Positions 33,178 through 54,820 are shown, counted from the stretch's first letter. The stretch: 64,000 nt of DNA from an uncultured Pseudomonadota bacterium (GCA_963774895.1 CAVZGN010000001.1:450419-514418), one strand, 5' to 3'. Numbers and translations: made by a program. Notes: generated from the sequence alone by a model not told the origin.

Positions 33178-33612
33178 GTGACTGATTTAACTGCCATATC
33201 GCTGAACGGTGAGAAGCTTGCGGCGCATCTTGCCACCCACGGTGTAACACCCACATCCCAGCGACTCAAGATCGCAGAGGTGCTGTTTCGCAAGCCGCAG
33301 CATCTATCGGCGGAGCAGATCATGGCCGCCGTCAACCGCCAGCCGCCGAAGGTCTCCAAAGCCACGGTGTACAACACCCTCAAGCTGTTTTCGGACAAGG
33401 GCCTGGTGCGGGCAGTGATCGTGGATCCGGCGCGGGTGTTCTACGATCCCACCGCCGGCAACCATCACCATTTCTACAATGCCGATACTGGCGAGCTCAT
33501 GGATATCGAGCCCGAGCAGGTGAAGTTTGCACAACTCCCGGAATTGCCGCCGGGCACCCAGCAGGCTGGCGTCGAAGTCATCGTGCGGCTGAGGCGCAGC
33601 AATAAAAACTGA
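33178..33612 (+). CDS. Fur-family transcriptional regulator (no CxxC pairs, HHH motif; Irr-like)
   Basis: GTG start. TSQRLKIAEVLF...HLSAEQI...VSKATVYNTLKLFSDKGLV is a Fur winged helix. GNHHHFYNADTGELMDI lacks the structural-Zn cysteines. Confidence 0.8.
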   Translation: MTDLTAISLNGEKLAAHLATHGVTPTSQRLKIAEVLFRKPQHLSAEQIMAAVNRQPPKVSKATVYNTLKLFSDKGLVRAVIVDPARVFYDPTAGNHHHFYNADTGELMDIEPEQVKFAQLPELPPGTQQAGVEVIVRLRRSNKN

Positions 33613-33674: not shown

Positions 33675-33750
<76 letters not shown>

Positions 33751-33900
33751 ATAACGACGCCCGAGAGATCATGCGCCTCTAGAAAACCGTGGTCAGTCCC
33801 AATTATACGATGATATATTTCGGCCTCAGCGAGATATTTCAATGAGCTTCTTGGTAAACAAGGAATATACAAGAAGGAATGCCCCAAATGCGGCTACTGA

Positions 33901-34428
33901 CTAATCAAGGCAGTCAGCAATAGACAAGAGTAAGAAGTTATCATTACCATTTTTAATCAAGATTATATTTCCATTAGTGTATTTCAGCTGTGCGCTGTTA
34001 TCTCCACTCGCTGTCCAATCCATATGTGGAATGTTCTGAATAATACTATTCGCAATTGATACGGCAGTTAATGATGACTCATTACCAGGTATATCAACAT
34101 AAATTGCGTCAATGGTAGGATTCGCAGTTAATCCTGACCATTCTAGGGTGATGATTCGATGATTTAGCACTATCTGTGATGCATATTGACCACAGGCTGG
34201 AAAGGCTTGTGCGTGAATATCAATTCTGTTACCTAATTGTTTTTCTACATCGCTGTGTGTTTCATTTATATATATTCCAGACCAGCCAAGTCTTCCAGCA
34301 TTTATAGCTACATAATCACCTGTATTATTTAAATGCGGGGTAGGGCGTGAGGCACACGTACAAATAAGCGTGCAGGTGCACAACAACCCCAATAGTTGGC
34401 CTAACCTCAAAGCGATCACTACTTGCAT
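33901..34428 (-). CDS. hypothetical secreted/membrane-anchored protein (175 aa)
   Basis: ATG 34428 gives the hydrophobic, Cys-rich N-terminus MQVVIALRLGQLLGLLCTCTLICTCAS. It is the last gene of the minus-strand island operon. Confidence 0.5.
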   Translation of the reverse strand: MQVVIALRLGQLLGLLCTCTLICTCASRPTPHLNNTGDYVAINAGRLGWSGIYINETHSDVEKQLGNRIDIHAQAFPACGQYASQIVLNHRIITLEWSGLTANPTIDAIYVDIPGNESSLTAVSIANSIIQNIPHMDWTASGDNSAQLKYTNGNIILIKNGNDNFLLLSIADCLD

Positions 34429-34498
34429 CAACTCTATCCACAAGCACCGGCTAATCGGAGTCCCATGGGGCGTATGTAAATAGATTCGAATGCGCGCA

Positions 34499-34831
34499 TT
34501 ATTCTGTCGACTCTCTCAAATCTGCTTCGAATGTATTAACACGCTCCGATCCATCCAAAGTAGAACTATCCACCGACCCCACGATGAGTTCATTGTCGAT
34601 TACTTGAGTGGCATATTGGCTTCCGTACTCAACGATCTCCTCCGGGGTCGCGTAAATCCCCTTTGGATGAATCCAATGTATCTGATCCGACAGCCTGCCT
34701 TCTTCGGGTCGAATTATTGCAATTGAAGCTACATACTTAAGTTGCGCAATCGTGTTCAATACACTTGATGGCAATTTATGTGCCGTCACTTTTATTACAA
34801 ATCCCTTGTATCCAAATACTTTTGGTTGCAT
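34499..34831 (-). CDS. island paralog family member P1 (110 aa), unknown function
   Basis: A ggaggg SD lies 7 nt before the ATG. MQPKVFGYKGFVIKV...YVASIAII...HPKGIYATPEEIVEYGSQYATQVIDNE shares the family pattern with P2-P4. Confidence 0.7.
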   Translation of the reverse strand: MQPKVFGYKGFVIKVTAHKLPSSVLNTIAQLKYVASIAIIRPEEGRLSDQIHWIHPKGIYATPEEIVEYGSQYATQVIDNELIVGSVDSSTLDGSERVNTFEADLRESTE

Positions 34832-34977
34832 CGAAAAACCCTCCAAGTTCGTAATGATGACTACTGACGGCCAGTAGATATCAACCGCACATAATCGATG
34901 TAATGCCCTATATCATAAAATACATTGATGATCTAAAAAGTATTATCATTCACGCTCTACCCTAAAGATCCATGTCA

Positions 34978-35298
34978 CTAACTACATTTGACTGAGAGAT
35001 CATTCTCGACAGACTTTACGCCTTTAACATGTCTGGCAACGTTGACGGCTTTGTCAATATCAGATTTAGAATTGATAAAGCCGCTCAATTTGACAATGCC
35101 TTTATATGTTTCAACGGTGATTTCGGTAGATTTGAGTCCTGTCGTGTGTAATAACGCGGTTTTGACGTCGGTTGTAATGACCGCATCGTCTGTGTATGCA
35201 GCTGCGTTCTCACACCTGGCGCCGGAGGAATATGTTATTAGCGGTGCGAATAGTAATATTGAGAGAATGAATGCAATCAGACGTTGATTAATTGACAT
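34978..35298 (-). CDS. periplasmic BON-domain protein (OsmY-like)
   Basis: A signal peptide is present. DDAVITTDVKTALLHTTGLKSTEITVETYKGIVKLSGFINSKSDIDKAVNVARHVKGVKSVENDL is a BON domain. Confidence 0.8.
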   Translation of the reverse strand: MSINQRLIAFILSILLFAPLITYSSGARCENAAAYTDDAVITTDVKTALLHTTGLKSTEITVETYKGIVKLSGFINSKSDIDKAVNVARHVKGVKSVENDLSVKCS

Positions 35299-35341
35299 GA
35301 GATATCCTCCGCATCAAGTTGAGTAATCGTATCGTTGCTCA

Positions 35342-35620
35342 TCAAGCATGACTTAAAGTCAGATCGCTAAAAGTTGTGCAACATAACCCATCATCTAGAG
35401 TGCGCATCGCAAACTGCCTTCCATGTTCCAAAGCTCTCTGTGGAGAGCTGGAGATTCTGCCAGGGTGCAGCCATTTCTCCTGGCATTTATCCGGCATCCA
35501 CGACATACGCACAATTGCAATGGAGACAAATCGCGGGCGATTACTATTACTTTTTGAGGCTAGTTTTACCGGAACTACTTTTATTATGAATCCCATGTAT
35601 TCGAAGTTTTCTTCTAGCAT
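35342..35620 (-). CDS. island paralog family member P2 (92 aa)
   Basis: An aagagg SD lies 7 nt before the ATG. MLEENFEYMGFIIKV...FVSIAIV...LHPGRISSSPQRALEHGRQFAMRTLDD. Confidence 0.7.
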   Translation of the reverse strand: MLEENFEYMGFIIKVVPVKLASKSNSNRPRFVSIAIVRMSWMPDKCQEKWLHPGRISSSPQRALEHGRQFAMRTLDDGLCCTTFSDLTLSHA

Positions 35621-35702
35621 GGCAATACCTCTTTACTCGTATGGTTATGTGAAATGCCCAATGAGGAATTCAAAAACCTATTCTCGACTCAGAGAGATAT
35701 TG

Positions 35703-35718
35703 AGCAATTGGAATGCCA
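35703..35718 (-). promoter_or_regulatory. sigma54 (-24/-12) promoter for the P2-BON-P1 operon
   Basis: The minus strand reads TGGCAT-tccaa-TTGCT, 82 nt upstream of the P2 ATG. Confidence 0.7.
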
Positions 35719-35794
35719 ATGCGAAAAAGCAGCATTCCTCCAATGGGTTATCTCGATTTTATAAGTATGGAATTAATAAAATGCAGATGAAGGA

Positions 35795-35995
35795 TGTCTC
35801 CTTGTGGAGACGAATTTACGCAGGTTGTTGAGTAATACCTTGAAAAAAACGGGTATGCGGGTGTCGGCTCAAGGAGACAGTGTTAACAAAAGCGAGCTAC
35901 CACTCATTCCAAGGCATTAATCAGTACCTCTGCATTGAAGAAATCGTCCGACCTCTTTGTTTACGGAGAACTGCATCTGTCGTCAACGGATGACG
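35795..35995. promoter_or_regulatory. three TGTC-N10-GAC(A/G) sites (candidate enhancer-binding sites) in the divergent control region
   Basis: The sites are TGTCtccttgtggaGACG (35795-35812), TGTCggctcaaggaGACA (35862-35879) and TGTCgtcaacggatGACG (35978-35995). They lie between the two divergent sigma54 promoters. Confidence 0.55.
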
Positions 35996-36078
35996 TTCGA
36001 TTTGTATTTGTGCGTCTTTCGCACAACCGGCGTTAATAAATTATCAGTAAATGTCCCAGTTTGGCAGCGATGCAGCCT

Positions 36079-36094
36079 TGGCATGGCATTTGCT
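36079..36094 (+). promoter_or_regulatory. sigma54 promoter for the 36175-P3-exbBD-tonB operon
   Basis: TGGCAT-ggcat-TTGCT, 80 nt upstream of ATG 36175. Confidence 0.7.
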
Positions 36095-36174
36095 CCTTTG
36101 TATATGCCGGCACGCATAAGCCTATTTGCCGTTGGGAAACTGCATAGCCGCTGCATATTTCTTCAGGAGCAGTT

Positions 36175-36564
36175 ATGAAAAGCGTATGCCTAGTACTGCT
36201 AATGATGTCGTCAGCTTTAGGGTTCAAGTTCGTTGATGCGTATAGCACTGCGCACATCAGCCAGGCTCTAACCCAAGCTGCAACAGGCAAAACAGGCAAT
36301 AACCAGCAGGTAGGAAGCACGTCGCCATTTACATTGGCGTTGGCAGACGCGACGGCAGTGCCGCCTGCGTCAGCTTCCAAAGTTCCAGCAGCGAAAGCGA
36401 AAAAAGCGGGTGCGCCAGCATGCAGCAGGCAACCCCCAGTCAATCATGACGCCCAAGTGATTCCGGCTCGAAATAAGGCGCAGTGGCCGCAATCAAGACT
36501 TCCAGCTGAACAGCAAACGCAATGCCAGGCTCAAAAGCCGTTGCATAAGCCTCCGCCCATCTAA
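36175..36564 (+). CDS. small secreted low-complexity (A/P/Q/K-rich) protein ending in KPPPI
   Basis: The signal peptide is MKSVCLVLLMMSSALGFKFVDA. An aggag SD is present. The C-terminal PPPI tail is shared with the two small lipoproteins at 39059 and 39791. Confidence 0.6.
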   Translation: MKSVCLVLLMMSSALGFKFVDAYSTAHISQALTQAATGKTGNNQQVGSTSPFTLALADATAVPPASASKVPAAKAKKAGAPACSRQPPVNHDAQVIPARNKAQWPQSRLPAEQQTQCQAQKPLHKPPPI

Positions 36565-36649
36565 ATAGATGATTCCTATGCATGCCGGCAGTGCGTCAAG
36601 ACTTAAGACCAAGCGAATCCCAATAACACACAGTGAGAGGAGAGCCAGC

Positions 36650-36943
36650 ATGATCATCGAGAAATTCAGCTATAAGGGTTTCACCATAAAGGTGAGTGCA
36701 CACGAGTTGTTTCACGGTTTTGGTCCTTCGGGAGTCAATTTAGGCTGGTATACCAGTGCAGTCGCCATATCAAAAAAACCGGATGGCGAGTGTCACGATT
36801 GTGAGGAAACCCTGCATCCCGGCAGGATTTCTGTCAGCCCCGAAAGAGCCATGGACTATGGCAAAAATTATGCCAGGCACGTTATTGATGAAGAAATTTT
36901 GTATTCAAACCTGAGTAAATTTCTGACGACGCGTCCGATATGA
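36650..36943 (+). CDS. island paralog family member P3 (97 aa)
   Basis: The SD is gagaggag. MIIEKFSYKGFTIKV...YTSAVAI...LHPGRISVSPERAMDYGKNYARHVIDEE. Confidence 0.7.
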   Translation: MIIEKFSYKGFTIKVSAHELFHGFGPSGVNLGWYTSAVAISKKPDGECHDCEETLHPGRISVSPERAMDYGKNYARHVIDEEILYSNLSKFLTTRPI

Positions 36944-36990
36944 ATACGTTTATTAATCGGACATGACTCTTTGGAAATGGAGGGATGCAC

Positions 36991-37695
36991 ATGAATGCCG
37001 TGACCGACCCAAATATCAACAATATTATCAACCCACCCAACCTGTCGCTCGGCCAACTTGTGCTGCATGCGGATCCAATCGTGCAAGCCGTATTGCTGCT
37101 GCTCTTGGTATTGTCCATATGGAGCTGGGCTGTCATTGTGCAGAAGGCCTTTGAACTGCATCGCGCTAAAAGGGTAGTGAAAAAACTGGAAACCGCTATC
37201 GAAAATGGGCATTCACCGGACGAAATCGGCGTAGTTGAAACGCATCCAGCCGCGGTCGTAATCAAGGCCGGGGTATTGGAATGGCAAACACAAATTCAGC
37301 CGAACTTAGGTGAAACCCCGGGCGAAGAACGTGAACGCATAGAACAAAGCATGCGCAACGCCCTGGGTCGCGAGATGCGCCGCATGCAGAAACGCCTGCC
37401 GCTACTCGCTACCGTGGGTTCGGTCGCAGTATTCATCGGTCTATTTGGCACGGTTTGGGGAATTATGAACAGTTTCACGGCAATTGCCCAAGCCCATGAC
37501 ACAAGTCTCGCTGTGGTAGCTCCCGGCATAGCCCAAGCGCTCATCGGCACAGCAGCTGGTTTGGCTGCGGCGATTCCCGCCGTCATCGGCTACAACAAAT
37601 TGGTAACCGAACTGAACTATTACGCGGGGCGGCTGCAGACGCTTATCAGCGTTTGCAGCAACATGATGGTCAAAAGCATTCGCGTTGGAGCATGA
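36991..37695 (+). CDS. exbB: MotA/TolQ/ExbB proton-channel protein
   Basis: A ggaggg SD lies 6 nt before ATG 36991. FIGLFGTVWGIMNSF and ALIGTAAGLAAAIPAVIGYN are ExbB/TolQ motifs. Confidence 0.85.
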   Translation: MNAVTDPNINNIINPPNLSLGQLVLHADPIVQAVLLLLLVLSIWSWAVIVQKAFELHRAKRVVKKLETAIENGHSPDEIGVVETHPAAVVIKAGVLEWQTQIQPNLGETPGEERERIEQSMRNALGREMRRMQKRLPLLATVGSVAVFIGLFGTVWGIMNSFTAIAQAHDTSLAVVAPGIAQALIGTAAGLAAAIPAVIGYNKLVTELNYYAGRLQTLISVCSNMMVKSIRVGA

Positions 37696-37699
37696 CGAC

Positions 37700-38197
37700 A
37701 TGGGCATGAATGTAACCCCCGGTGCGATGTCCGAAGATACGTTATCCGGTTATCAGCCAATGGCTGAAATCAATGTGACGCCACTGGTTGACGTTATGCT
37801 GGTATTACTCATCATATTTATGATTACAGCGCCTCTTATGATGGCGCAACTGCCCATTGAACTGCCCAAAACCAGCGCGGCGGAACTAGGTAAACCGAAA
37901 CAGCCGCTGATTGTTAGTCTGGATACAAAGGGGCAGTATTATATCGATGACAAACCTACTGCATCTGTGGACTTGCCCACGCAACTCAAGACACTTGCCA
38001 ACCAGGATCCCGATCAGACTGTGTATGTACGCGCTGATAAAGCCATCCCCTACGGGCAAGTGATGGCACTGCTGGGCGAAGTAGGCCAATCCGGGTTTTA
38101 CAGGATATCCTTGATAAGCAAACGGGCGAGTGCCTCAACGAATAGCTCCGGCGCCGCATCGCCTGCTCCCTTGGCAGGCACGCAGCCGCCACGCTGA
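37700..38197 (+). CDS. exbD: biopolymer transport protein ExbD/TolR
   Basis: AEINVTPLVDVMLVLLIIFMITAP is the signature TM segment. Confidence 0.85.
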   Translation: MGMNVTPGAMSEDTLSGYQPMAEINVTPLVDVMLVLLIIFMITAPLMMAQLPIELPKTSAAELGKPKQPLIVSLDTKGQYYIDDKPTASVDLPTQLKTLANQDPDQTVYVRADKAIPYGQVMALLGEVGQSGFYRISLISKRASASTNSSGAASPAPLAGTQPPR

Positions 38198-38200
38198 ATC

Positions 38201-38827
38201 ATGCTCCAATTCAGCCACAGTCTCGGGATATCGGTCGGTATCCATATAGCAGCGGTTCTGCTCCTAATCTTGATTGCCGAATATCATTCGGCCACACCTC
38301 TGCCACCTTCCAACGCATCTTTGGCCGATGCCATCGCCGTCAACATTGTGCCACCACCGCCACCGCAATCACCTCCGCAGCCGCCACAACCACGGGTGCC
38401 ACAGCCGACGCCGCCGGTCCTACAGCCGCCCCCGCAGACTATTTCTACCGAAGCCGCTCAGGCCGATATATCAACACCACCGCCCAAGAGCATTCCAGCT
38501 CCGGCACCGCCGCCGCCCACGCAGAGTCAAACTACGCCTCTGGAAGCGACCTATGCGCAGATTGTCAGCGCCCTTCTGGAAGCAAATAAGCGCTACCCAC
38601 GCCAGGCATTGCTTGCCGGAGAACAGGGCACCGTGATCTTGTGGTTTGTGCTTAACCGTGAAGGTACGGTACTTGCGTATCGGATTGAACAGTCTTCAGG
38701 GCAACTGATATTCGATGAAGCAGTGAAACGCCTTATTCAGCGTATTCATTTTCCACCCTTTCCGAATCGCGATCTGAGCCAACGCAAGACCTTCATGGTA
38801 CCCATACAATTCGAGTTAACGGGATAA
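38201..38827 (+). CDS. tonB: energy transducer TonB
   Basis: An N-terminal TM is followed by a Pro-rich spacer (PPPPPQSPPQPPQPRVPQP). The C-terminal TonB domain reads YPRQALLAGEQGTVILWFVLNREGTV. Confidence 0.85.
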   Translation: MLQFSHSLGISVGIHIAAVLLLILIAEYHSATPLPPSNASLADAIAVNIVPPPPPQSPPQPPQPRVPQPTPPVLQPPPQTISTEAAQADISTPPPKSIPAPAPPPPTQSQTTPLEATYAQIVSALLEANKRYPRQALLAGEQGTVILWFVLNREGTVLAYRIEQSSGQLIFDEAVKRLIQRIHFPPFPNRDLSQRKTFMVPIQFELTG

Positions 38828-38835
38828 ATTGTTGT

Positions 38836-38920
38836 TGTCTCATTCCACCGACATCATATTTTTCACTGAATTCAAGGCGTTGTAGATTCAATCCGGTCTA
38901 AGCGTCACCCTCAGGCGACA
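38836..38920. promoter_or_regulatory. two (T/C)GTC-N10-GACA sites upstream of the third sigma54 promoter
   Basis: The sites are TGTCtcattccaccGACA (38836-38853) and CGTCaccctcaggcGACA (38903-38920). Confidence 0.5.
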
Positions 38921-38982
38921 GATTTCCAGATAACGGTCGGTAAGACCCGCCGAATTAACCGTGTTTGCTGAATATCGGATTC

Positions 38983-38998
38983 TGGCACGTCGTTTGCA
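38983..38998 (+). promoter_or_regulatory. sigma54 promoter for the lipoprotein-P4 operon
   Basis: TGGCAC-gtcgt-TTGCA is a perfect consensus, 60 nt upstream of ATG 39059. Confidence 0.75.
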
Positions 38999-39058
38999 GG
39001 AGTATTCATCGGGTATCGAACCCAGGCTTTTCACTCCATTAAACATGCAGGTGGCGTT

Positions 39059-39262
39059 ATGAAAATCATAGTTGCTGGATGCTTGACAGCTTCGCTGATC
39101 CTCGGGGCACTCTGTGCTTGTAATGGCAATAATCCACAAAATAACCCGCAAGCGACTCCTGCCCCCACTACCCAGCAGGCGCCCGCACAGACAACACAGC
39201 CGGCGCCTACAGCCACGACCAAATCGAAGGCAGGATCGAACGTCGTACCGCCACCCCTCTGA
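39059..39262 (+). CDS. small secreted/lipoprotein, Q/P/T/A-rich, ending in VPPPL
   Basis: 67 aa, with an N-terminal hydrophobic segment and Cys residues (ILGALCAC). TTQQAPAQTTQPAPTATT is paralogous to the 39791 protein. Confidence 0.6.
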   Translation: MKIIVAGCLTASLILGALCACNGNNPQNNPQATPAPTTQQAPAQTTQPAPTATTKSKAGSNVVPPPL

Positions 39263-39290
39263 GGAAAGCCGTTTCACCAGGAGAATTGCC

Positions 39291-39566
39291 ATGACCCATA
39301 AAATCTTCGGCTATAAGGGATTTATCGTAAAGGTGATACCGCGTGAAGTCATTGCCATGCAATCCGCAGCCAACAGACGTATCCGTTATGCAGCATCCGT
39401 GGTGATCATGCGTTTTGTGGATGCCACACGCCACAAAAACGCGATGCGCTGCTATCCGGGTGGCACATGCGTGACGCCGGAGCAAGCGCTGAAGCTGGGC
39501 ACGGAATATGCCACTCACCTGATTGACGATGATTTCTCCATTACTGCGACGGCTGAACAATTCTGA
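39291..39566 (+). CDS. island paralog family member P4 (91 aa)
   Basis: A caggaga SD lies 6 nt before the ATG. MTHKIFGYKGFIVKV...YAASVVI...YPGGTCVTPEQALKLGTEYATHLIDDD. Confidence 0.7.
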   Translation: MTHKIFGYKGFIVKVIPREVIAMQSAANRRIRYAASVVIMRFVDATRHKNAMRCYPGGTCVTPEQALKLGTEYATHLIDDDFSITATAEQF

Positions 39567-39699
39567 ATTGACCGGCATTATTTTACGCTGCTGATCGTCG
39601 CAATGAGACAACGCTTCATTCATACGTTATGCCTATAACAAATGCTATTTGGAATTGGATCTATGCAAAAGGCTTTTAAAATCGGGTGTATTCGAAGCT

Positions 39700-39715
39700 T
39701 GGCATGCAGCTTGCT
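39700..39715 (+). promoter_or_regulatory. sigma54 promoter for the lipoprotein/EF-hand operon
   Basis: TGGCAT-gcagc-TTGCT, 75 nt upstream of ATG 39791. Confidence 0.7.
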
Positions 39716-39790
39716 GCATTTCAATCGGAGACGATATAAAACCATCGTGTTGCTTGTATCAATTTCATCACAACTGGGAAGGAGAGAACC

Positions 39791-39982
39791 ATGAAAATCG
39801 CTAATGCATTGGCTGCGCTACTGACACTCGGCCTTATTGCTGGGTGTTCTGGTAATCCGTCGCAGGACTCACAACAACAAGGTATGAACCCTGCAGGAAC
39901 CACCACACAACAGGCGCCGGCTCCGGCCACGCAGCCAGCACCGGCTCCAACGACCCACCAGCCACCACCCCCGTCGATATGA
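39791..39982 (+). CDS. small lipoprotein, Q/P/T/A-rich, ending in PPPPSI
   Basis: Canonical lipobox LIAGC. An aggagag SD is present. TTTQQAPAPATQPAPAPTT is paralogous to the 39059 protein. Confidence 0.65.
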   Translation: MKIANALAALLTLGLIAGCSGNPSQDSQQQGMNPAGTTTQQAPAPATQPAPAPTTHQPPPPSI

Positions 39983-40060
39983 TCGTGTCATCAGCCTCAG
40001 ACTGACAACGAAAATATCATGTTCAGAGGTAAATCACGCACTCTTATTTTAGAGGCATTT

Positions 40061-40438
40061 ATGAAAAACGTAATCGCAGTAATTTCAGGAATTGTGTTGG
40101 CAATCAGCCTGGGCGCCGCTTTCGCGGGCAATACACCAGCTAGCGGCAAGCAGGATATGCAGAATCCGGAGCAGGCATCGCAGACTCCATCCGATCCTCA
40201 AAATGCATGCAATACCAAATACCCAAGCTTCAGCCAGCTTGATACCAAACATAAGGATTATCTCACCAAGAAAGAAGTAAGCCGGGTTCACGGCCTGGAA
40301 CAGGCATTCAAGAAAGCTGACACCGACCATAATGGGAAACTGAGCGATTCTGAATATACGGCGTGGGTGGAATCCCATTGCAAAAGCAGCATGCTGAACC
40401 AGCAACCGCAGGGGCAGACACCACCACCGGTTGGATGA
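40061..40438 (+). CDS. periplasmic EF-hand calcium-binding protein
   Basis: A signal peptide is present. The EF-hand loop is DTDHNGKLSDSE, with a second degenerate loop DTKHKDYLTKKE. Confidence 0.7.
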   Translation: MKNVIAVISGIVLAISLGAAFAGNTPASGKQDMQNPEQASQTPSDPQNACNTKYPSFSQLDTKHKDYLTKKEVSRVHGLEQAFKKADTDHNGKLSDSEYTAWVESHCKSSMLNQQPQGQTPPPVG

Positions 40439-40486
40439 TTTAAATCGCGCGGTTATTAAACGCGTCTGCTATCAGCAGAACCTGTG

Positions 40487-40530
40487 TTCCGGCAGGGTCC
40501 GTTGGACCCTGCCGGAATGTTGTATATTTG
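40487..40530 (+). terminator. strong rho-independent terminator
   Basis: ttccggcagggtcc-gtt-ggaccctgccggaa forms a 14-bp stem, followed by a T-rich tract. Confidence 0.7.
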
Positions 40531-40705
40531 AATGGCAACTGTGCAAACTATGAAAGCCAGGCACCACCAGCTAGTAGCAAATAAGAAATAAACAGGCGGA
40601 TTTTGCTATAGCTCTTGGCAGAGCTCGACTACAAAGTTTCAGGGAAGGCGCGCAGAACCGCTGTATTTTGGGTGTCAATGGAAATAAGGAGTGTGTGTAG
40701 CACTT

Positions 40706-42142
40706 ATGAAAATTCTTCAGCCCAGCTCGATACGCAAACGGATCCTGTTCTCATTTTCGCTAGTCATGTTACCCCTGGTCTTTGGACTGGCAGTAGCAAT
40801 ACTCTCCATACATAATCTGGCTACACAGGGGCAAAACGCAGTTCTAAACGCCGCCGATACCGTTCAATACAGCCGCACGTTGCTGGAAGAACTACCCGAT
40901 ATGGAACGTAATGCGCTCCAGTACCGGGTACTGCAAGATCAATCGCTGTATAAGCTTTATACAGAACGGCATCAAGAATTCCAGCAGACCAGTACTGCCT
41001 TCTCACGCTTGAAGCTTAATGACACCATGCGTGAAAAACTCAACGAACTTACCACACGAGAGCAAGTCGTTTTCAATAATTTTTCGCGGTTCGATCCAAA
41101 TTCAGACGATTCCAATATGGCAGTGGATCAATTTGAGGATTTGAACAATCTGGCACGCTCCATACTCGCATTAGGCACGCAATCCATCGAAAATGAAATC
41201 AATAATATGCAGACGACTTCCAAAACCCGTCAAAGCCAACTGGCGTGGCTGGTGGCAATTCTGATACTCGCGGGTTTTTGCATGGCTGCAATATCCATCG
41301 TTCTGATCACTCGGCCAATGCGATCAATAGACCAGGCGATAAAGGGAATCGGCGCCGGAGATCTGGCCACCCCGATCGCGGTGAAAGGACCCCAGGATCT
41401 GAATGAACTTGGCAAACGCTTGGACTGGTTGCGCTCCAGGTTGCTTGATCTCGAGCAGCATCGCGTTCGCTTTCTCAGGCATATCTCACATGAACTCAAG
41501 ACACCGTTGACAAACATCCGTGAAGGTTCGCAGTTGTTGACGGATCAGATCGTGGGACCGCTTAATACTGAACAATTGGAAATTGCGCAGATTCTGCAAA
41601 AGAATGGCATGCAGTTGCAACAACGCATCGAAGATCTGCTGAATTACAGCGCCGCGCAAGGGCCTCAATTGTTCGGTGAAAACCAATTGATCAAGTTCAA
41701 TCAGGTGATTGTCAAAGTGATCGAGGACCAGAAGATGGCCATCAAGGCCAAACACATAAAAATCGATGCGCACTTGCATGAAGTCGCCATACTGGCTGAT
41801 GCGGAAAAAATTCGTATCGTAGTGGACAATCTGCTTTCCAACGCCATCAAATACTCGCCCATGGGCGGTGTAATCGGGCTGAATCTAAAGGTAGAGAATG
41901 GTCAAGCGGTTTTGAATGTGGAAGATCAAGGTCCAGGCATCAAAGCGGATGAGCGGGAGAAGGTTTTTGAAGCTTTTTATCAGGGCCAGGGCAGTGACAG
42001 CGGTTATGTAAAAGGCACCGGATTGGGTCTATCCATCGCCCGCGAATATATACGTCTGCACCAAGGTATGATTGAGATCGTCGAACGACAGCATGGAGCA
42101 GGCTTTCGGATTGCTCTACCCGCTACGGGATCAGGAGGCTGA
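40706..42142 (+). CDS. sensor histidine kinase (GlrK/QseE-like)
   Basis: Two TM segments, a HAMP-like region, the H-box FLRHISHELKTPLTNI and the ATPase motifs NAIKYSP, DQGPGI, GTGLGLSI. GTG 40691 is an alternative start. Confidence 0.8.
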   Translation: MKILQPSSIRKRILFSFSLVMLPLVFGLAVAILSIHNLATQGQNAVLNAADTVQYSRTLLEELPDMERNALQYRVLQDQSLYKLYTERHQEFQQTSTAFSRLKLNDTMREKLNELTTREQVVFNNFSRFDPNSDDSNMAVDQFEDLNNLARSILALGTQSIENEINNMQTTSKTRQSQLAWLVAILILAGFCMAAISIVLITRPMRSIDQAIKGIGAGDLATPIAVKGPQDLNELGKRLDWLRSRLLDLEQHRVRFLRHISHELKTPLTNIREGSQLLTDQIVGPLNTEQLEIAQILQKNGMQLQQRIEDLLNYSAAQGPQLFGENQLIKFNQVIVKVIEDQKMAIKAKHIKIDAHLHEVAILADAEKIRIVVDNLLSNAIKYSPMGGVIGLNLKVENGQAVLNVEDQGPGIKADEREKVFEAFYQGQGSDSGYVKGTGLGLSIAREYIRLHQGMIEIVERQHGAGFRIALPATGSGG

Positions 42143-42754
42143 ATGCGCAGGAATTTGCCTGGCCTAGTTGTATCGCTCGTCATCAGCATTATTCTGGTTT
42201 TGACGGGATGTATTCCCCGCTCCACAAAGCCGGATGTGCTTATGATCCCTGAAACAGGTGACGGCCAAATTGTCAGATTGATGGACTACGTCAACACCGT
42301 CTTGAGTCTGCCACCGGCTGCTCAGGCGGCCACGCAGGAAAACCTTAGGCAGCAATATAATCTAACGCAGTTCCCCGAAGACCGGATGCGACTTGCGCTT
42401 TTGGATGTTCTGTCGGACAGGCCGTCGCGCAATCTGGATGAGGCTGTGTCATTAGTATCTGGATATAACTGGGAAGTAGTGGGGCCGGGATTCAAGGGCT
42501 TGGCCAATCTGCTATTAAATATTGCCAGTAGTCAGCAAGCAATCGCCACAATTGACCAGTCACTCGCGCAGCAATTGGCTTCGGAGCGCTCACAAAAAGA
42601 TCATCTTCAACAACAACTGGACGCGTTGAAGAGTATCGAGAAAACCATGGATAAACGCGACAAGTCGATAGTGGCTCCACCCATCCGCAAGCTGCCGCCA
42701 GCCTCAACCAGCAACTCACAACCTCCAGCCACACCCCCTGGGGAGCAGCTTTGA
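42143..42754 (+). CDS. lipoprotein encoded between kinase and regulator (QseG/YfhG-like position)
   Basis: Lipobox LVLTGC. 203 aa. The position mirrors E. coli glrK-qseG-glrR. I cannot assert sequence similarity to QseG. Confidence 0.55.
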   Translation: MRRNLPGLVVSLVISIILVLTGCIPRSTKPDVLMIPETGDGQIVRLMDYVNTVLSLPPAAQAATQENLRQQYNLTQFPEDRMRLALLDVLSDRPSRNLDEAVSLVSGYNWEVVGPGFKGLANLLLNIASSQQAIATIDQSLAQQLASERSQKDHLQQQLDALKSIEKTMDKRDKSIVAPPIRKLPPASTSNSQPPATPPGEQL

Positions 42755-44127
42755 AAGCCACGCCCGCAAAAGCGATCTTGACTACGGGACGTATTCTGGT
42801 TGCTGACGATGACCCCGGCCTGCTGCGCCTGTTAGTCATGCGTCTGACCGCTGCGGGGCACGAGGTGCGTACGGTGGAAAGCGGCGAACAGGCCTTGGCG
42901 CAGATCCCGCTGTTCCGGCCACACGCGGTCATAACCGATATGCGCATGGCGGGTATGGATGGTATTGAGCTATTTAACAACATACGGCGCCATGATCAAT
43001 CTTTGCCAGTGATCATTCTCACCGCTCATGGCACTATTCCTGACGCCGTGGATGCCACCCATAAAGGAGTATTTGCCTATCTCACCAAACCCTTCGATAG
43101 CAAATCACTGTTGAAATGGGTGAACGATGCCTTGCGGATATCCGGCAAGCTTGAATTAAAAGATGTTGAAAACGCAGATGCTGCATGGCGTGCGGACATT
43201 ATCACACGCAGCCTGCTGATGGAGGATTTGTTGCGTCAAGCGAAGCTCGTATCTGCGGGCGATACGGCGGTTCTCATACAAGGTGAGAGTGGTACCGGCA
43301 AGGAACTATTGGCGCGTGCCATTCACAACGCCAGCCCGCGCGGCGACAAGCCGTTCATAGCCGTCAACTGTGCCGCGATCCCGGAAACCCTGCTGGAATC
43401 CGAGCTTTTCGGATACAGCAAGGGCGCATTCACCGGTGCAACCTCGGACCGGCGCGGCCTGTTTCAGGCCGCACATACCGGTACTCTATTCCTGGATGAG
43501 ATTGGCGACATGCCTTTGAGTTTCCAGGTGAAATTGTTGCGTGCGTTGCAGGAGAAAGAAATCCGGCCGGTTGGTTCGAATAATCCTATCGCAGTGGATG
43601 TACGCATTATTTCGGCCACGAACCATGACCTTGAAAAGAAGGTCTCGGAACAGGGGTTCCGCGAAGATCTATATTATCGGCTGGCAGTAGTGCCGCTGAC
43701 CATGCCACCGCTGGCAGCCCGCCGCGAAGATATTCCGCTCCTGGTTACCCATTTCCTAAGCCATGCGGGAGGAAGCAATACAAAAAGCATCAAAGGATTT
43801 GCACCCCGGGCCATGGAACTATTATTGAGTGCGCCTTGGCCGGGCAATGTGCGGCAGCTACAGAACGTAGTGGAACAAACCGTAGCACTTACCACCACCC
43901 CCCTCATACCGGAAGTCCTGGTACAAAATGCCCTGCGTGAGAAGACCGGACAAGTCACTTCCCTGGTCGAAGCGCGGGAACATTTTGAACGCGAATACCT
44001 GGTACAACTACTGCAAATCACCGAGGGCAACGTAAGTCAGGCAGCACACCTGGCGCAGCGGAATCGCACTGAATTCTACAAACTTTTACACCGTTACCAA
44101 CTTAAACCAGAGGAATTCCGATCCTGA
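42751..44127 (+). CDS. sigma54-dependent response regulator (GlrR/QseF-like, NtrC family)
   Basis: The receiver domain reads ILVADDDPGLLRLLVMRLT...PVIILTAHGTIPDAVDATHKGVFAYLTKP, close to my memory of GlrR. The AAA+ domain shows GESGTGKE and GAFTGA. A C-terminal Fis-type HTH is present. The TTG start overlaps the upstream stop. Confidence 0.85.
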   Translation: MKATPAKAILTTGRILVADDDPGLLRLLVMRLTAAGHEVRTVESGEQALAQIPLFRPHAVITDMRMAGMDGIELFNNIRRHDQSLPVIILTAHGTIPDAVDATHKGVFAYLTKPFDSKSLLKWVNDALRISGKLELKDVENADAAWRADIITRSLLMEDLLRQAKLVSAGDTAVLIQGESGTGKELLARAIHNASPRGDKPFIAVNCAAIPETLLESELFGYSKGAFTGATSDRRGLFQAAHTGTLFLDEIGDMPLSFQVKLLRALQEKEIRPVGSNNPIAVDVRIISATNHDLEKKVSEQGFREDLYYRLAVVPLTMPPLAARREDIPLLVTHFLSHAGGSNTKSIKGFAPRAMELLLSAPWPGNVRQLQNVVEQTVALTTTPLIPEVLVQNALREKTGQVTSLVEAREHFEREYLVQLLQITEGNVSQAAHLAQRNRTEFYKLLHRYQLKPEEFRS

Positions 44128-54055: not shown

Positions 54056-54820
54056 ATGTATCAGTGCCGGCTCATTGTCTGTATGACTATGATCAGCTTA
54101 TTGCTGATTGCCTGTGCGACAGCCAACGAACCGCCGCCCATCGGTTCCGAACCTACCGGCCCTACCACTTATCCCGTTACTGTGAGCGCAACGACGCTGA
54201 AATTTCTCAGCTCACCACAAGATCAAACACAAAATGGACTTGAAATAAGCCTGCATGCCTTGGATACCGTACCGCAGCTTTACTATCGCTACCAGATGGC
54301 TTCCAAGGTCAATGGAACTTACCTCGTGTTTATGATAAAACCACCAAAACTGTATTCGGTTTATCGTGTTCCATTTTATAAAAATGATCCCGACCGGGTC
54401 ATCGTCAAAGTCGAATTGACAAATCATTCAGCCCAAATCCTGGATACCGCTAATGCCGTGTGCGCGTTCGAGCTGGATGGACAAACTGTGGTGACACAGC
54501 CGCTCAAGGCGGGTGACTTACTGCCGGACCAAACGAAGGTTGTACCCGTTCAAGGACCAAGTCTGGAACAGCTCAAGGGACATGAAGAACTGGCCGTATG
54601 GATTTTTCAGCCCAGCTCGGCAAATGCGGCACTGAGCAAAACTCCTTTCAAATGGACCCTTCATTACACTTTGACAGTCGAAACCGAGGCTGCAAATGCA
54701 ATATTGGTGGCTCAGTCGCCGTACGAATCAGGGGTCAGTAATTATGCGGGACGGATTGAACCGGCCAATTCTGATACCACATCAACATCAGATACTGCGA
54801 AACCACCCCCAATCCGGTAA
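54056..54820 (+). CDS. hypothetical lipoprotein
   Basis: The lipobox-like motif LLLIAC lies near the N-terminus. I recognise no family. Confidence 0.5.
   Translation: MYQCRLIVCMTMISLLLIACATANEPPPIGSEPTGPTTYPVTVSATTLKFLSSPQDQTQNGLEISLHALDTVPQLYYRYQMASKVNGTYLVFMIKPPKLYSVYRVPFYKNDPDRVIVKVELTNHSAQILDTANAVCAFELDGQTVVTQPLKAGDLLPDQTKVVPVQGPSLEQLKGHEELAVWIFQPSSANAALSKTPFKWTLHYTLTVETEAANAILVAQSPYESGVSNYAGRIEPANSDTTSTSDTAKPPPIR

Follow-up and report, generated by a model that had tools for sequence, protein, structure and literature searches.

Within a 64,000-nucleotide (nt) stretch of DNA from an uncultured Pseudomonadota bacterium (GCA_963774895.1, CAVZGN010000001.1:450419-514418; hereafter the window), four paralogous genes, P1 to P4, encode small proteins that probably form a divergent, host-regulated chromosomal branch of an uncharacterised superfamily, the other known members of which are prophage proteins. 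The family is new as a family, yet it is not isolated in sequence space, and, as read from the DNA, its genes belong to a sigma-54 regulon with GlrR-type sites. An earlier note on the window had described four open reading frames (ORFs), each with a strong Shine-Dalgarno sequence and a shared motif, as a family that could not be placed. All four were recovered, as follows (pI, isoelectric point):

34499..34831, minus strand: P1, 110 residues, acidic (pI 5.1), with a variable and acidic C-terminal tail
35342..35620, minus strand: P2, 92 residues, basic (pI 9.0), with the conserved tail CCTTFSDLxLxHA
36650..36943, plus strand: P3, 97 residues (pI 6.5), with a His-rich loop, HxHEExLHP, and the conserved tail LYxNLxxFLxxRP
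39291..39566, plus strand: P4, 91 residues, basic (pI 9.3), with a conserved RCYPxGxC; the most constrained paralog

The four proteins align with pairwise identities of 29-33% across the first ~82 residues. Thirteen columns are invariant (M1, F6, Y8, G10, F11, K14, V15, I39, P56, P63, G70, A74 and D79), covering the F-x-Y-x-G-F...K-V start, the isoleucine of the central strand, the proline of the HP/YP motif and the P...G...A...D pattern of the helix. BLASTP comparison of P1 with P4 (E=2e-17) and of P2 with P3 (E=2e-15) excludes chance resemblance among the paralogs. When a family hidden Markov model (HMM) was searched against all six-frame ORFs, exactly four copies were found in the window (E 1e-36 to 1e-41), with no fifth below E=0.6. 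Shine-Dalgarno sequences lie 6-9 nt upstream of the starts (GGAGGG for P1, AAGAGG for P2, GAGAGGAG for P3 and AGGAGA for P4), and independent gene callers predict the same four genes on identical public contigs. Against the orthologs in locus L003, from a related metagenome-assembled genome (MAG), the ratios of non-synonymous to synonymous substitution rates (dN/dS) are 0.23 for P1, 0.17 for both P2 and P3, and 0.045 for P4, similar in range to those of neighbouring genes in the same comparison (ExbB 0.07, a BON-domain protein 0.13, the response regulator 0.08). Values of 0.05-0.23 place P1-P4 under purifying selection and mark them as genuine genes. The earlier note had also seen neither a signal peptide nor a transmembrane segment in any of the four, and this holds: no hydrophobic segment is present, the maximum 19-residue Kyte-Doolittle mean being <=1.27. 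P1-P4 are real protein-coding genes for small cytoplasmic proteins.

This is a tiny, clade-restricted family of uncultured soil Gammaproteobacteria. A word-indexed search of 5.8 billion proteins returned 29 members, and when 1.84 billion representatives, clustered at 50% identity, were searched in full with HMMER, only eight family clusters were recovered, all from unclassified gammaproteobacterial MAGs. With one genome taken per species, the family was found in 4 of 185,579 species, again all labelled unclassified Gammaproteobacteria MAGs. The members split into four orthogroups that match P1, P2, P3 and P4, so the four-way duplication is older than the divergence of the host organisms. The paralog tree groups P1 with P4 and P2 with P3 at 68% bootstrap, a value that leaves the idea of an A/B pair tentative.

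The claim that the family cannot be placed stands as far as Pfam is concerned, since no Pfam model matches P1-P4, and scans of Pfam, PHROGs, PADLOC and NCBIfam gave no above-threshold family. Sequence searches of the PDB with the family profile and with P3 alone returned nothing relevant, the BFVD library of viral structures gave only insignificant, uncharacterised matches, and tblastn of P1 against phages and plasmids yielded only noise. The claim gave way on the phage side. In a tblastn search of phage genomes, gp37 of Burkholderia phage phi1026b (NP_945068; phrog_27219) was matched across 82% of P3. Searched as single-sequence HMMs, P3 (E 0.06) and P4 (E 0.14) match phrog_27219 weakly along the full length of the phrog_27219 model and P1 and P2 do not, and alignment of the whole P family with phrog_27219 by hhalign gave 94.9% probability over 75 columns (E 4.7e-8). 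Like the P proteins, gp37 is small (~80 residues) and begins F-x-Y-[KR]-G-[FY]-x-[VI]-x-[IV], followed by a central hydrophobic strand and by P-x-G...T-x-E-x-A-[IL]-E-Y...A...[VI]-D-D in the C-terminal helix; it too belongs to a tandem set of diverged paralogs, which comprises gp36, gp37 and, in locus L016, a third copy. It differs in that its identity to the P proteins is only 23-27%, in that it has none of the orthogroup-specific tails and is restricted to Burkholderia, and in that its gene sits in a prophage cassette by the integrase and attP, whereas the P genes sit in a sigma-54 envelope regulon. Similarity of gp36 and of the third prophage paralog to the P profile is weak (hhalign probability 14-20%).

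The prophage cassette itself was seen in two Burkholderia prophage loci (L013 3477-4246, which is phi1026b gp35-gp37, and L016 1215-2493). It is integrase-adjacent, on the opposite strand, and encodes a Cys-rich zinc-finger-like protein and, in tandem, two or three diverged paralogs that share the small fold; the third paralog, in L016, has a weak match to CV_2116_dom (E 0.019). Some gp37-like proteins carry the UniRef name 'Hydrogenase maturation factor', which looks spurious.

A second link leads to CV_2116 of Chromobacterium violaceum, published as a monomeric singleton with a novel fold. The NCBIfam model NF046097 (CV_2116_dom) is matched over nearly its full length by P1 (15.4 bits, E 0.015) and P3 (15.9 bits, E 0.011), below the 58-bit cutoff; P2 and P4 have no match to it in the same scan. 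Across the family, 13 of 35 members match NF046097 at E<=1, all sub-threshold (best E 2.2e-4), and no other model recurs. In Foldseek, the top PDB match of the P1 AlphaFold model (predicted local distance difference test score, pLDDT, 68) is the nuclear magnetic resonance structure of CV_2116, 2KON, with probability 0.99, a target TM-score of 0.60 and a root mean square deviation of 3.2 Å over 78 of 82 residues at 19% identity. The published structure has a β1-β2 hairpin, a second hairpin bent into a separate small sheet, two more strands and a 21-residue C-terminal helix. The P4 model (pLDDT 85, predicted TM-score 0.73), with strands at residues 4-8, 11-23, 30-42 and 49-54 and a helix at 63-90, has its elements in the same order, and the P topology, as modelled, runs from a β-hairpin through a long bent hairpin and a short strand to a long C-terminal helix. 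The CV_2116 hydrophobic core comprises Y6, Y9, I30, T44, A63, I66 and I67; family residues Y8, F11, I39, A74, V77 and I78 occupy the positions of Y6, Y9, I30, A63, I66 and I67. CV_2116 and, as modelled, the P proteins are small α+β proteins with N-terminal antiparallel strands and a single C-terminal helix, of ~21 residues in CV_2116, which differs in its shorter hairpin (the helix starts at residue 52 rather than 63) and in the location of its gene among prophage baseplate genes. A search with a merged profile did not reach CV_2116. The match of that profile to Irp2/HMWP2 (7JTJ residues 94-139, E 0.01) was rejected as chance, being a local match of a loop and helix only within a 452-residue chain.

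Three weak signals, independent of one another, thus point the same way, and we read P1-P4, gp37 and CV_2116 as one loose superfamily, with P1-P4 being members of neither named family. As both relatives are uncharacterised, the searches did not lead to any characterised family with known function, and the earlier description of a duplicated cytoplasmic family without a Pfam match, lying in sigma-54 operons, is supported.

That description had also pointed to a superficial likeness to the N-domains of HicB-type antitoxins, which did not survive comparison. The P proteins could in principle be HicB-type antitoxins or another toxin-antitoxin or phage-defence component derived from prophages: the β-hairpin followed by P-x-G...[ST]-P-E-x-A and a helix recalls the HicB motif, the relatives are prophage-borne and the cluster lies in a low-GC block beside a tRNA-Thr gene. 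Against this, no paralog has a HicB, UPF0150 or other antitoxin Pfam match at E<=10, PADLOC gave no match, and no HicB structure is among the top 50 Foldseek PDB matches of the P1 or P4 model. The proteins stop soon after the single helix, with no DNA-binding extension, and their neighbours are genes for a BON protein and lipoproteins and exbB, with no HicA-like or toxin-like gene. The locus has no integrase or phage gene, and its promoters are of the sigma-54 type with GlrR boxes rather than an autoregulated toxin-antitoxin promoter. An antitoxin or defence role is therefore largely refuted already, and we regard it as very improbable.

The P genes are spread over three operons in the window, and a fourth operon has no P gene. 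Operon 1 (minus strand) comprises P2, an exported BON protein, P1 and a probable lipoprotein; operon 2 (plus) an exported Pro-rich protein, P3, exbB, exbD and tonB; operon 3 (plus) a 67-residue lipoprotein and P4; and operon 4 (plus) a 63-residue lipoprotein, an exported EF-hand protein and a strong terminator. An exact sigma-54 consensus (TGGCAY-N5-TTGCW, the -24/-12 element) occurs five times in the 64 kb, always at 35.7-39.7 kb, and four of the five sites are correctly placed 5' of the four operons. Five boxes matching the published GlrR binding consensus, TGTC-N10-GACA (PMC3045617), lie in the same promoter DNA:

35703..35718, minus strand: sigma-54 -24/-12 site 5' of the P2-BON-P1 operon
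35795-35812 and 35862-35879: pair of GlrR-type boxes 67 bp apart, common to two divergent promoters
35978-35995: third GlrR-type box in the same divergent promoter region
36079..36094, plus strand: sigma-54 site 5' of the secreted protein-P3-exbB-exbD-tonB operon
38836-38853 and 38903-38920: pair of GlrR-type boxes 67 bp apart, 5' of the P4 operon promoter
38983..38998, plus strand: sigma-54 site 5' of the lipoprotein-P4 operon
39700..39715, plus strand: sigma-54 site 5' of the lipoprotein/EF-hand operon, which has no P gene

Five boxes with <=1 mismatch in ~0.8 kb of promoter DNA compare with ~0.3 expected from the window-wide rate. In the window the members of each pair lie about 100 and 170 bp 5' of the -24 element, and the same arrangement recurs 5' of the homologous operons in other genomes: 12 sigma-54 promoters with box pairs 65-68 bp apart were found across the window and loci L001, L003, L007, L009 and L010. 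The promoter is stereotyped, with paired boxes followed about 80-100 bp downstream by an exact -24/-12 element, and the five loci that share this layout include a distant contig carrying only the P2-BON-P1 operon. A conserved element resembling GATTCAA-N4-TTR often lies between the paired boxes. Nearly all promoters lack the strict IHF consensus, of which 18 promoter regions contain three scattered matches. The fifth sigma-54 match (36512-36527, minus strand), antisense within the gene for the 129-residue secreted protein, has no GlrR boxes, is not conserved in L003 and is probably due to chance.

Downstream of the four operons lies a candidate regulator of these promoters:

40691-42142, plus strand: histidine kinase
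42143-42754, plus strand: lipoprotein in the QseG position, with an LTGC lipobox
42751-44127, plus strand: sigma-54 response regulator, best family match GlrR

The response regulator scores 598 bits against the GlrR model, compared with 416 bits for the next best model, and does not reach the GlrR equivalog cutoff of 763. This adjacent trio probably drives the four sigma-54 promoters. It resembles the GlrK/QseG/GlrR system (QseE/QseG/QseF) of Enterobacteriaceae in its order of kinase, lipoprotein and sigma-54 response regulator, in targets that carry TGTC-N10-GACA boxes 5' of -24/-12 promoters, and in a cell-envelope theme. It differs in that the enterobacterial GlrR targets are the small RNA genes glmY and glmZ together with rpoE, whereas here they would be four protein-coding operons, and in that the boxes come in twos, with a fixed spacing of 67 bp, and not in threes. 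The earlier note had called the operons sigma-54-driven, which the exact sites 5' of each bear out; the GlrR-like regulator and the GlrR-type boxes had been overlooked.

The features around the P genes are as follows:

33901..34443, minus strand: probable lipoprotein of 175-180 residues, 3' of P1; no family match; conserved in L003 and L010
34978..35298, minus strand: exported BON-domain protein, OsmY-like, between P2 and P1
36175..36564, plus strand: exported Pro-rich protein of 129 residues, C terminus KPPPI, 5' of P3
36985-37695, plus strand: exbB
37685-38197, plus strand: exbD
38201-38827, plus strand: tonB
39059..39262, plus strand: lipoprotein of 67 residues, C terminus VPPPL, 28 nt 5' of P4
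39791-39982, plus strand: lipoprotein of 63 residues, C terminus PPPPSI
40019-40438, plus strand: exported EF-hand protein, C terminus TPPPVG
40484-40520: strong terminator after the EF-hand gene

As the earlier note had observed, P3 and P4 each directly follow the gene of a small exported protein with a PPP tail (ending PPPI or PPPL), and P3 stops 42 nt before exbB. In all cases, P3 lies immediately 5' of exbB. The lipoprotein stop and the P4 start are 27-31 nt apart, a conserved spacing. The P3 start overlaps the upstream secreted ORF by ATGA in L001 (7308-7311) and L009 (7333-7336), implying translational coupling, and is separated from it in the window by a gap of 86 nt. These junctions suit a role for the P proteins as dedicated cytoplasmic escorts of the adjacent exported proteins (the BON protein, the Pro-tailed lipoproteins and the 180-residue lipoprotein), holding them before export or coupling their synthesis to it. 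Every P gene does adjoin a gene for an exported protein, and the number of P paralogs roughly tracks that of exported partners. However, a P gene is missing from the lipoprotein/EF-hand operon, the cassettes of the phage relatives encode no exported partner, and Foldseek searches with the P1 and P4 models returned no SecB-like or type III chaperone-like match. We also know of no Sec or Lol substrates of such size that need private chaperones, and consider an escort function quite improbable.

Four exported proteins of the regulon end in Pro-Pro-Pro plus one to two residues (36550-36564, 39248-39262, 39965-39982 and 40421-40438), and a fifth lipoprotein, 14 kb away (54056-54820), ends in KPPPIR. 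The tails are kept in L001, L003 and L007 while the rest of these low-complexity proteins diverges, which suggests that the tail is a C-terminal recognition signal or, possibly, a translational one. Ribosome stalling at the PPP tail as a control of P3 and P4 translation was considered and rejected, since the EF-hand protein has the same tail with no P gene 3' of it and the L009 homologue has only PPL. The EF-hand protein appears to be a periplasmic metal- or calcium-binding member of the regulon; its match to lanmodulin is weak and sub-threshold (29 bits, where the cutoff is 135; E 8e-7). A gene for a Fur-family regulator (33178-33612) lies just before the tRNA-Thr gene, close to the private TonB system.

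The module is conserved while its flanks differ, with kdp in one genome and relA...sucAB in others, and this hints at relocation or horizontal transfer of the module. In the window it lies in a block of lower GC content (33675-42000; 0.42-0.53, compared with 0.55-0.63 in the flanks) that begins right after tRNA-Thr (33675-33750), and no integrase was seen in the locus. In its minimal version the locus retains a P gene, similar to P4, along with the EF-hand gene and the trio of kinase, lipoprotein and regulator.

What the P proteins do can be approached through their company and their pattern of conservation. Through the GlrK/QseG/GlrR-like trio they would be co-regulated with the BON protein, a dedicated ExbB-ExbD-TonB system, the Pro-tailed lipoproteins and the EF-hand protein, a set that suggests a response directed at the envelope. 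The Pfam and NCBIfam scans revealed neither a catalytic motif nor a match to an enzyme family in P1-P4. The fold is expected to be built by the residues common to all paralogs, whereas each orthogroup has loops and C-terminal tails of its own, strongly conserved among its members; together with the spread of pI from 5.1 to 9.3, this is what is expected of a subfunctionalised binding scaffold. We tentatively propose, with rather less than even confidence, that the P proteins are non-enzymatic, paralog-specific cytoplasmic binding adaptors, each specialised for a different partner by subfunctionalisation of a small scaffold. P3, which always lies directly 5' of exbB, would most likely engage the co-transcribed ExbB/ExbD/TonB complex from its cytoplasmic side. 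P4, which is under the tightest constraint of the four and is still found alongside the kinase operon in the minimal locus, would most likely be a feedback connector on the GlrK/GlrR pair, as RapZ is on QseE/QseF in E. coli. RapZ is a cytoplasmic protein documented to act on QseE/QseF, and PmrD is a β-rich protein of ~85 residues with a C-terminal helix. Both are cytoplasmic and alter the output of a kinase or regulator by binding to it; they serve as analogies only, having no sequence likeness or significant fold likeness to the P proteins.

Several points weigh against this proposal. The link to the CV_2116 fold hangs on the P1 model, the less confident of the two, and the better P4 model does not retrieve 2KON among its top 50 Foldseek matches, all of which have E>0.27; the CV_2116_dom scores, at ~15 bits, are also far under the cutoff. 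Since CV_2116 and gp37 are themselves uncharacterised, homology to them is uninformative on P function. The binding partners named are candidates, and the conserved synteny fits other roles as well as it fits adaptors. On the regulatory side, the response regulator, at 598 bits, falls short of the 763 bits required of a GlrR equivalog, and no GlmY/GlmZ Rfam match was found in the window.

The main rival is that the P proteins are small nucleic-acid-binding proteins, for example RNA-binding post-transcriptional regulators of the regulon, which would bind through the open face of the β-sheet, possibly as dimers, in the manner of PUR/Whirly repeats or dsRBD-like modules. Two paralogs are basic, and the models bear some resemblance to dsRBD, Whirly and coat-protein folds. 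None of these resemblances is statistically significant, however (E>0.27), the best matches to PUR, Whirly and dsRBD having E 0.6-1.3 and query TM-scores of 0.3-0.52. P1, P3, gp36 and gp37 are all acidic or neutral, and K14 is the only basic surface residue conserved across the paralogs, which leaves no conserved basic face. In addition, the helix begins with an acidic TPE-x-A where dsRBDs have a basic KKxAK, and CV_2116 is monomeric in solution. A nucleic-acid-binding role is on this evidence unlikely, if the most serious of the alternatives.

The adaptor reading can also be extended. The P proteins might be a new class of small cytoplasmic connectors that arose from a tandem pair like gp36-gp37 and work as heterodimers (P1 with P2, P3 with P4) that couple the ExbB-ExbD-TonB motor to GlrK/GlrR. 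The energised state of the envelope would then be fed back to transcription, and the prophage relatives would be hijackers of the same host targets. We consider this elaboration improbable.

For this family, then, the sequence reveals regulation with good confidence and does not reveal the biochemical role, and neither the fold link nor the regulon settles a long-standing question. If it holds, the link ties together three previously unconnected groups of proteins: the structural-genomics singleton CV_2116, phi1026b gp37 and the chromosomal P family. It would place the fold outside prophages and under host regulation, which provides a regulatory handle on what the fold does. The regulon, in turn, would be a GlrK/QseG/GlrR-type system that governs protein-coding envelope operons and not, as in enterobacteria, the small RNAs glmY and glmZ, and its promoter layout varies so little that regulon members in other genomes could be predicted from it.

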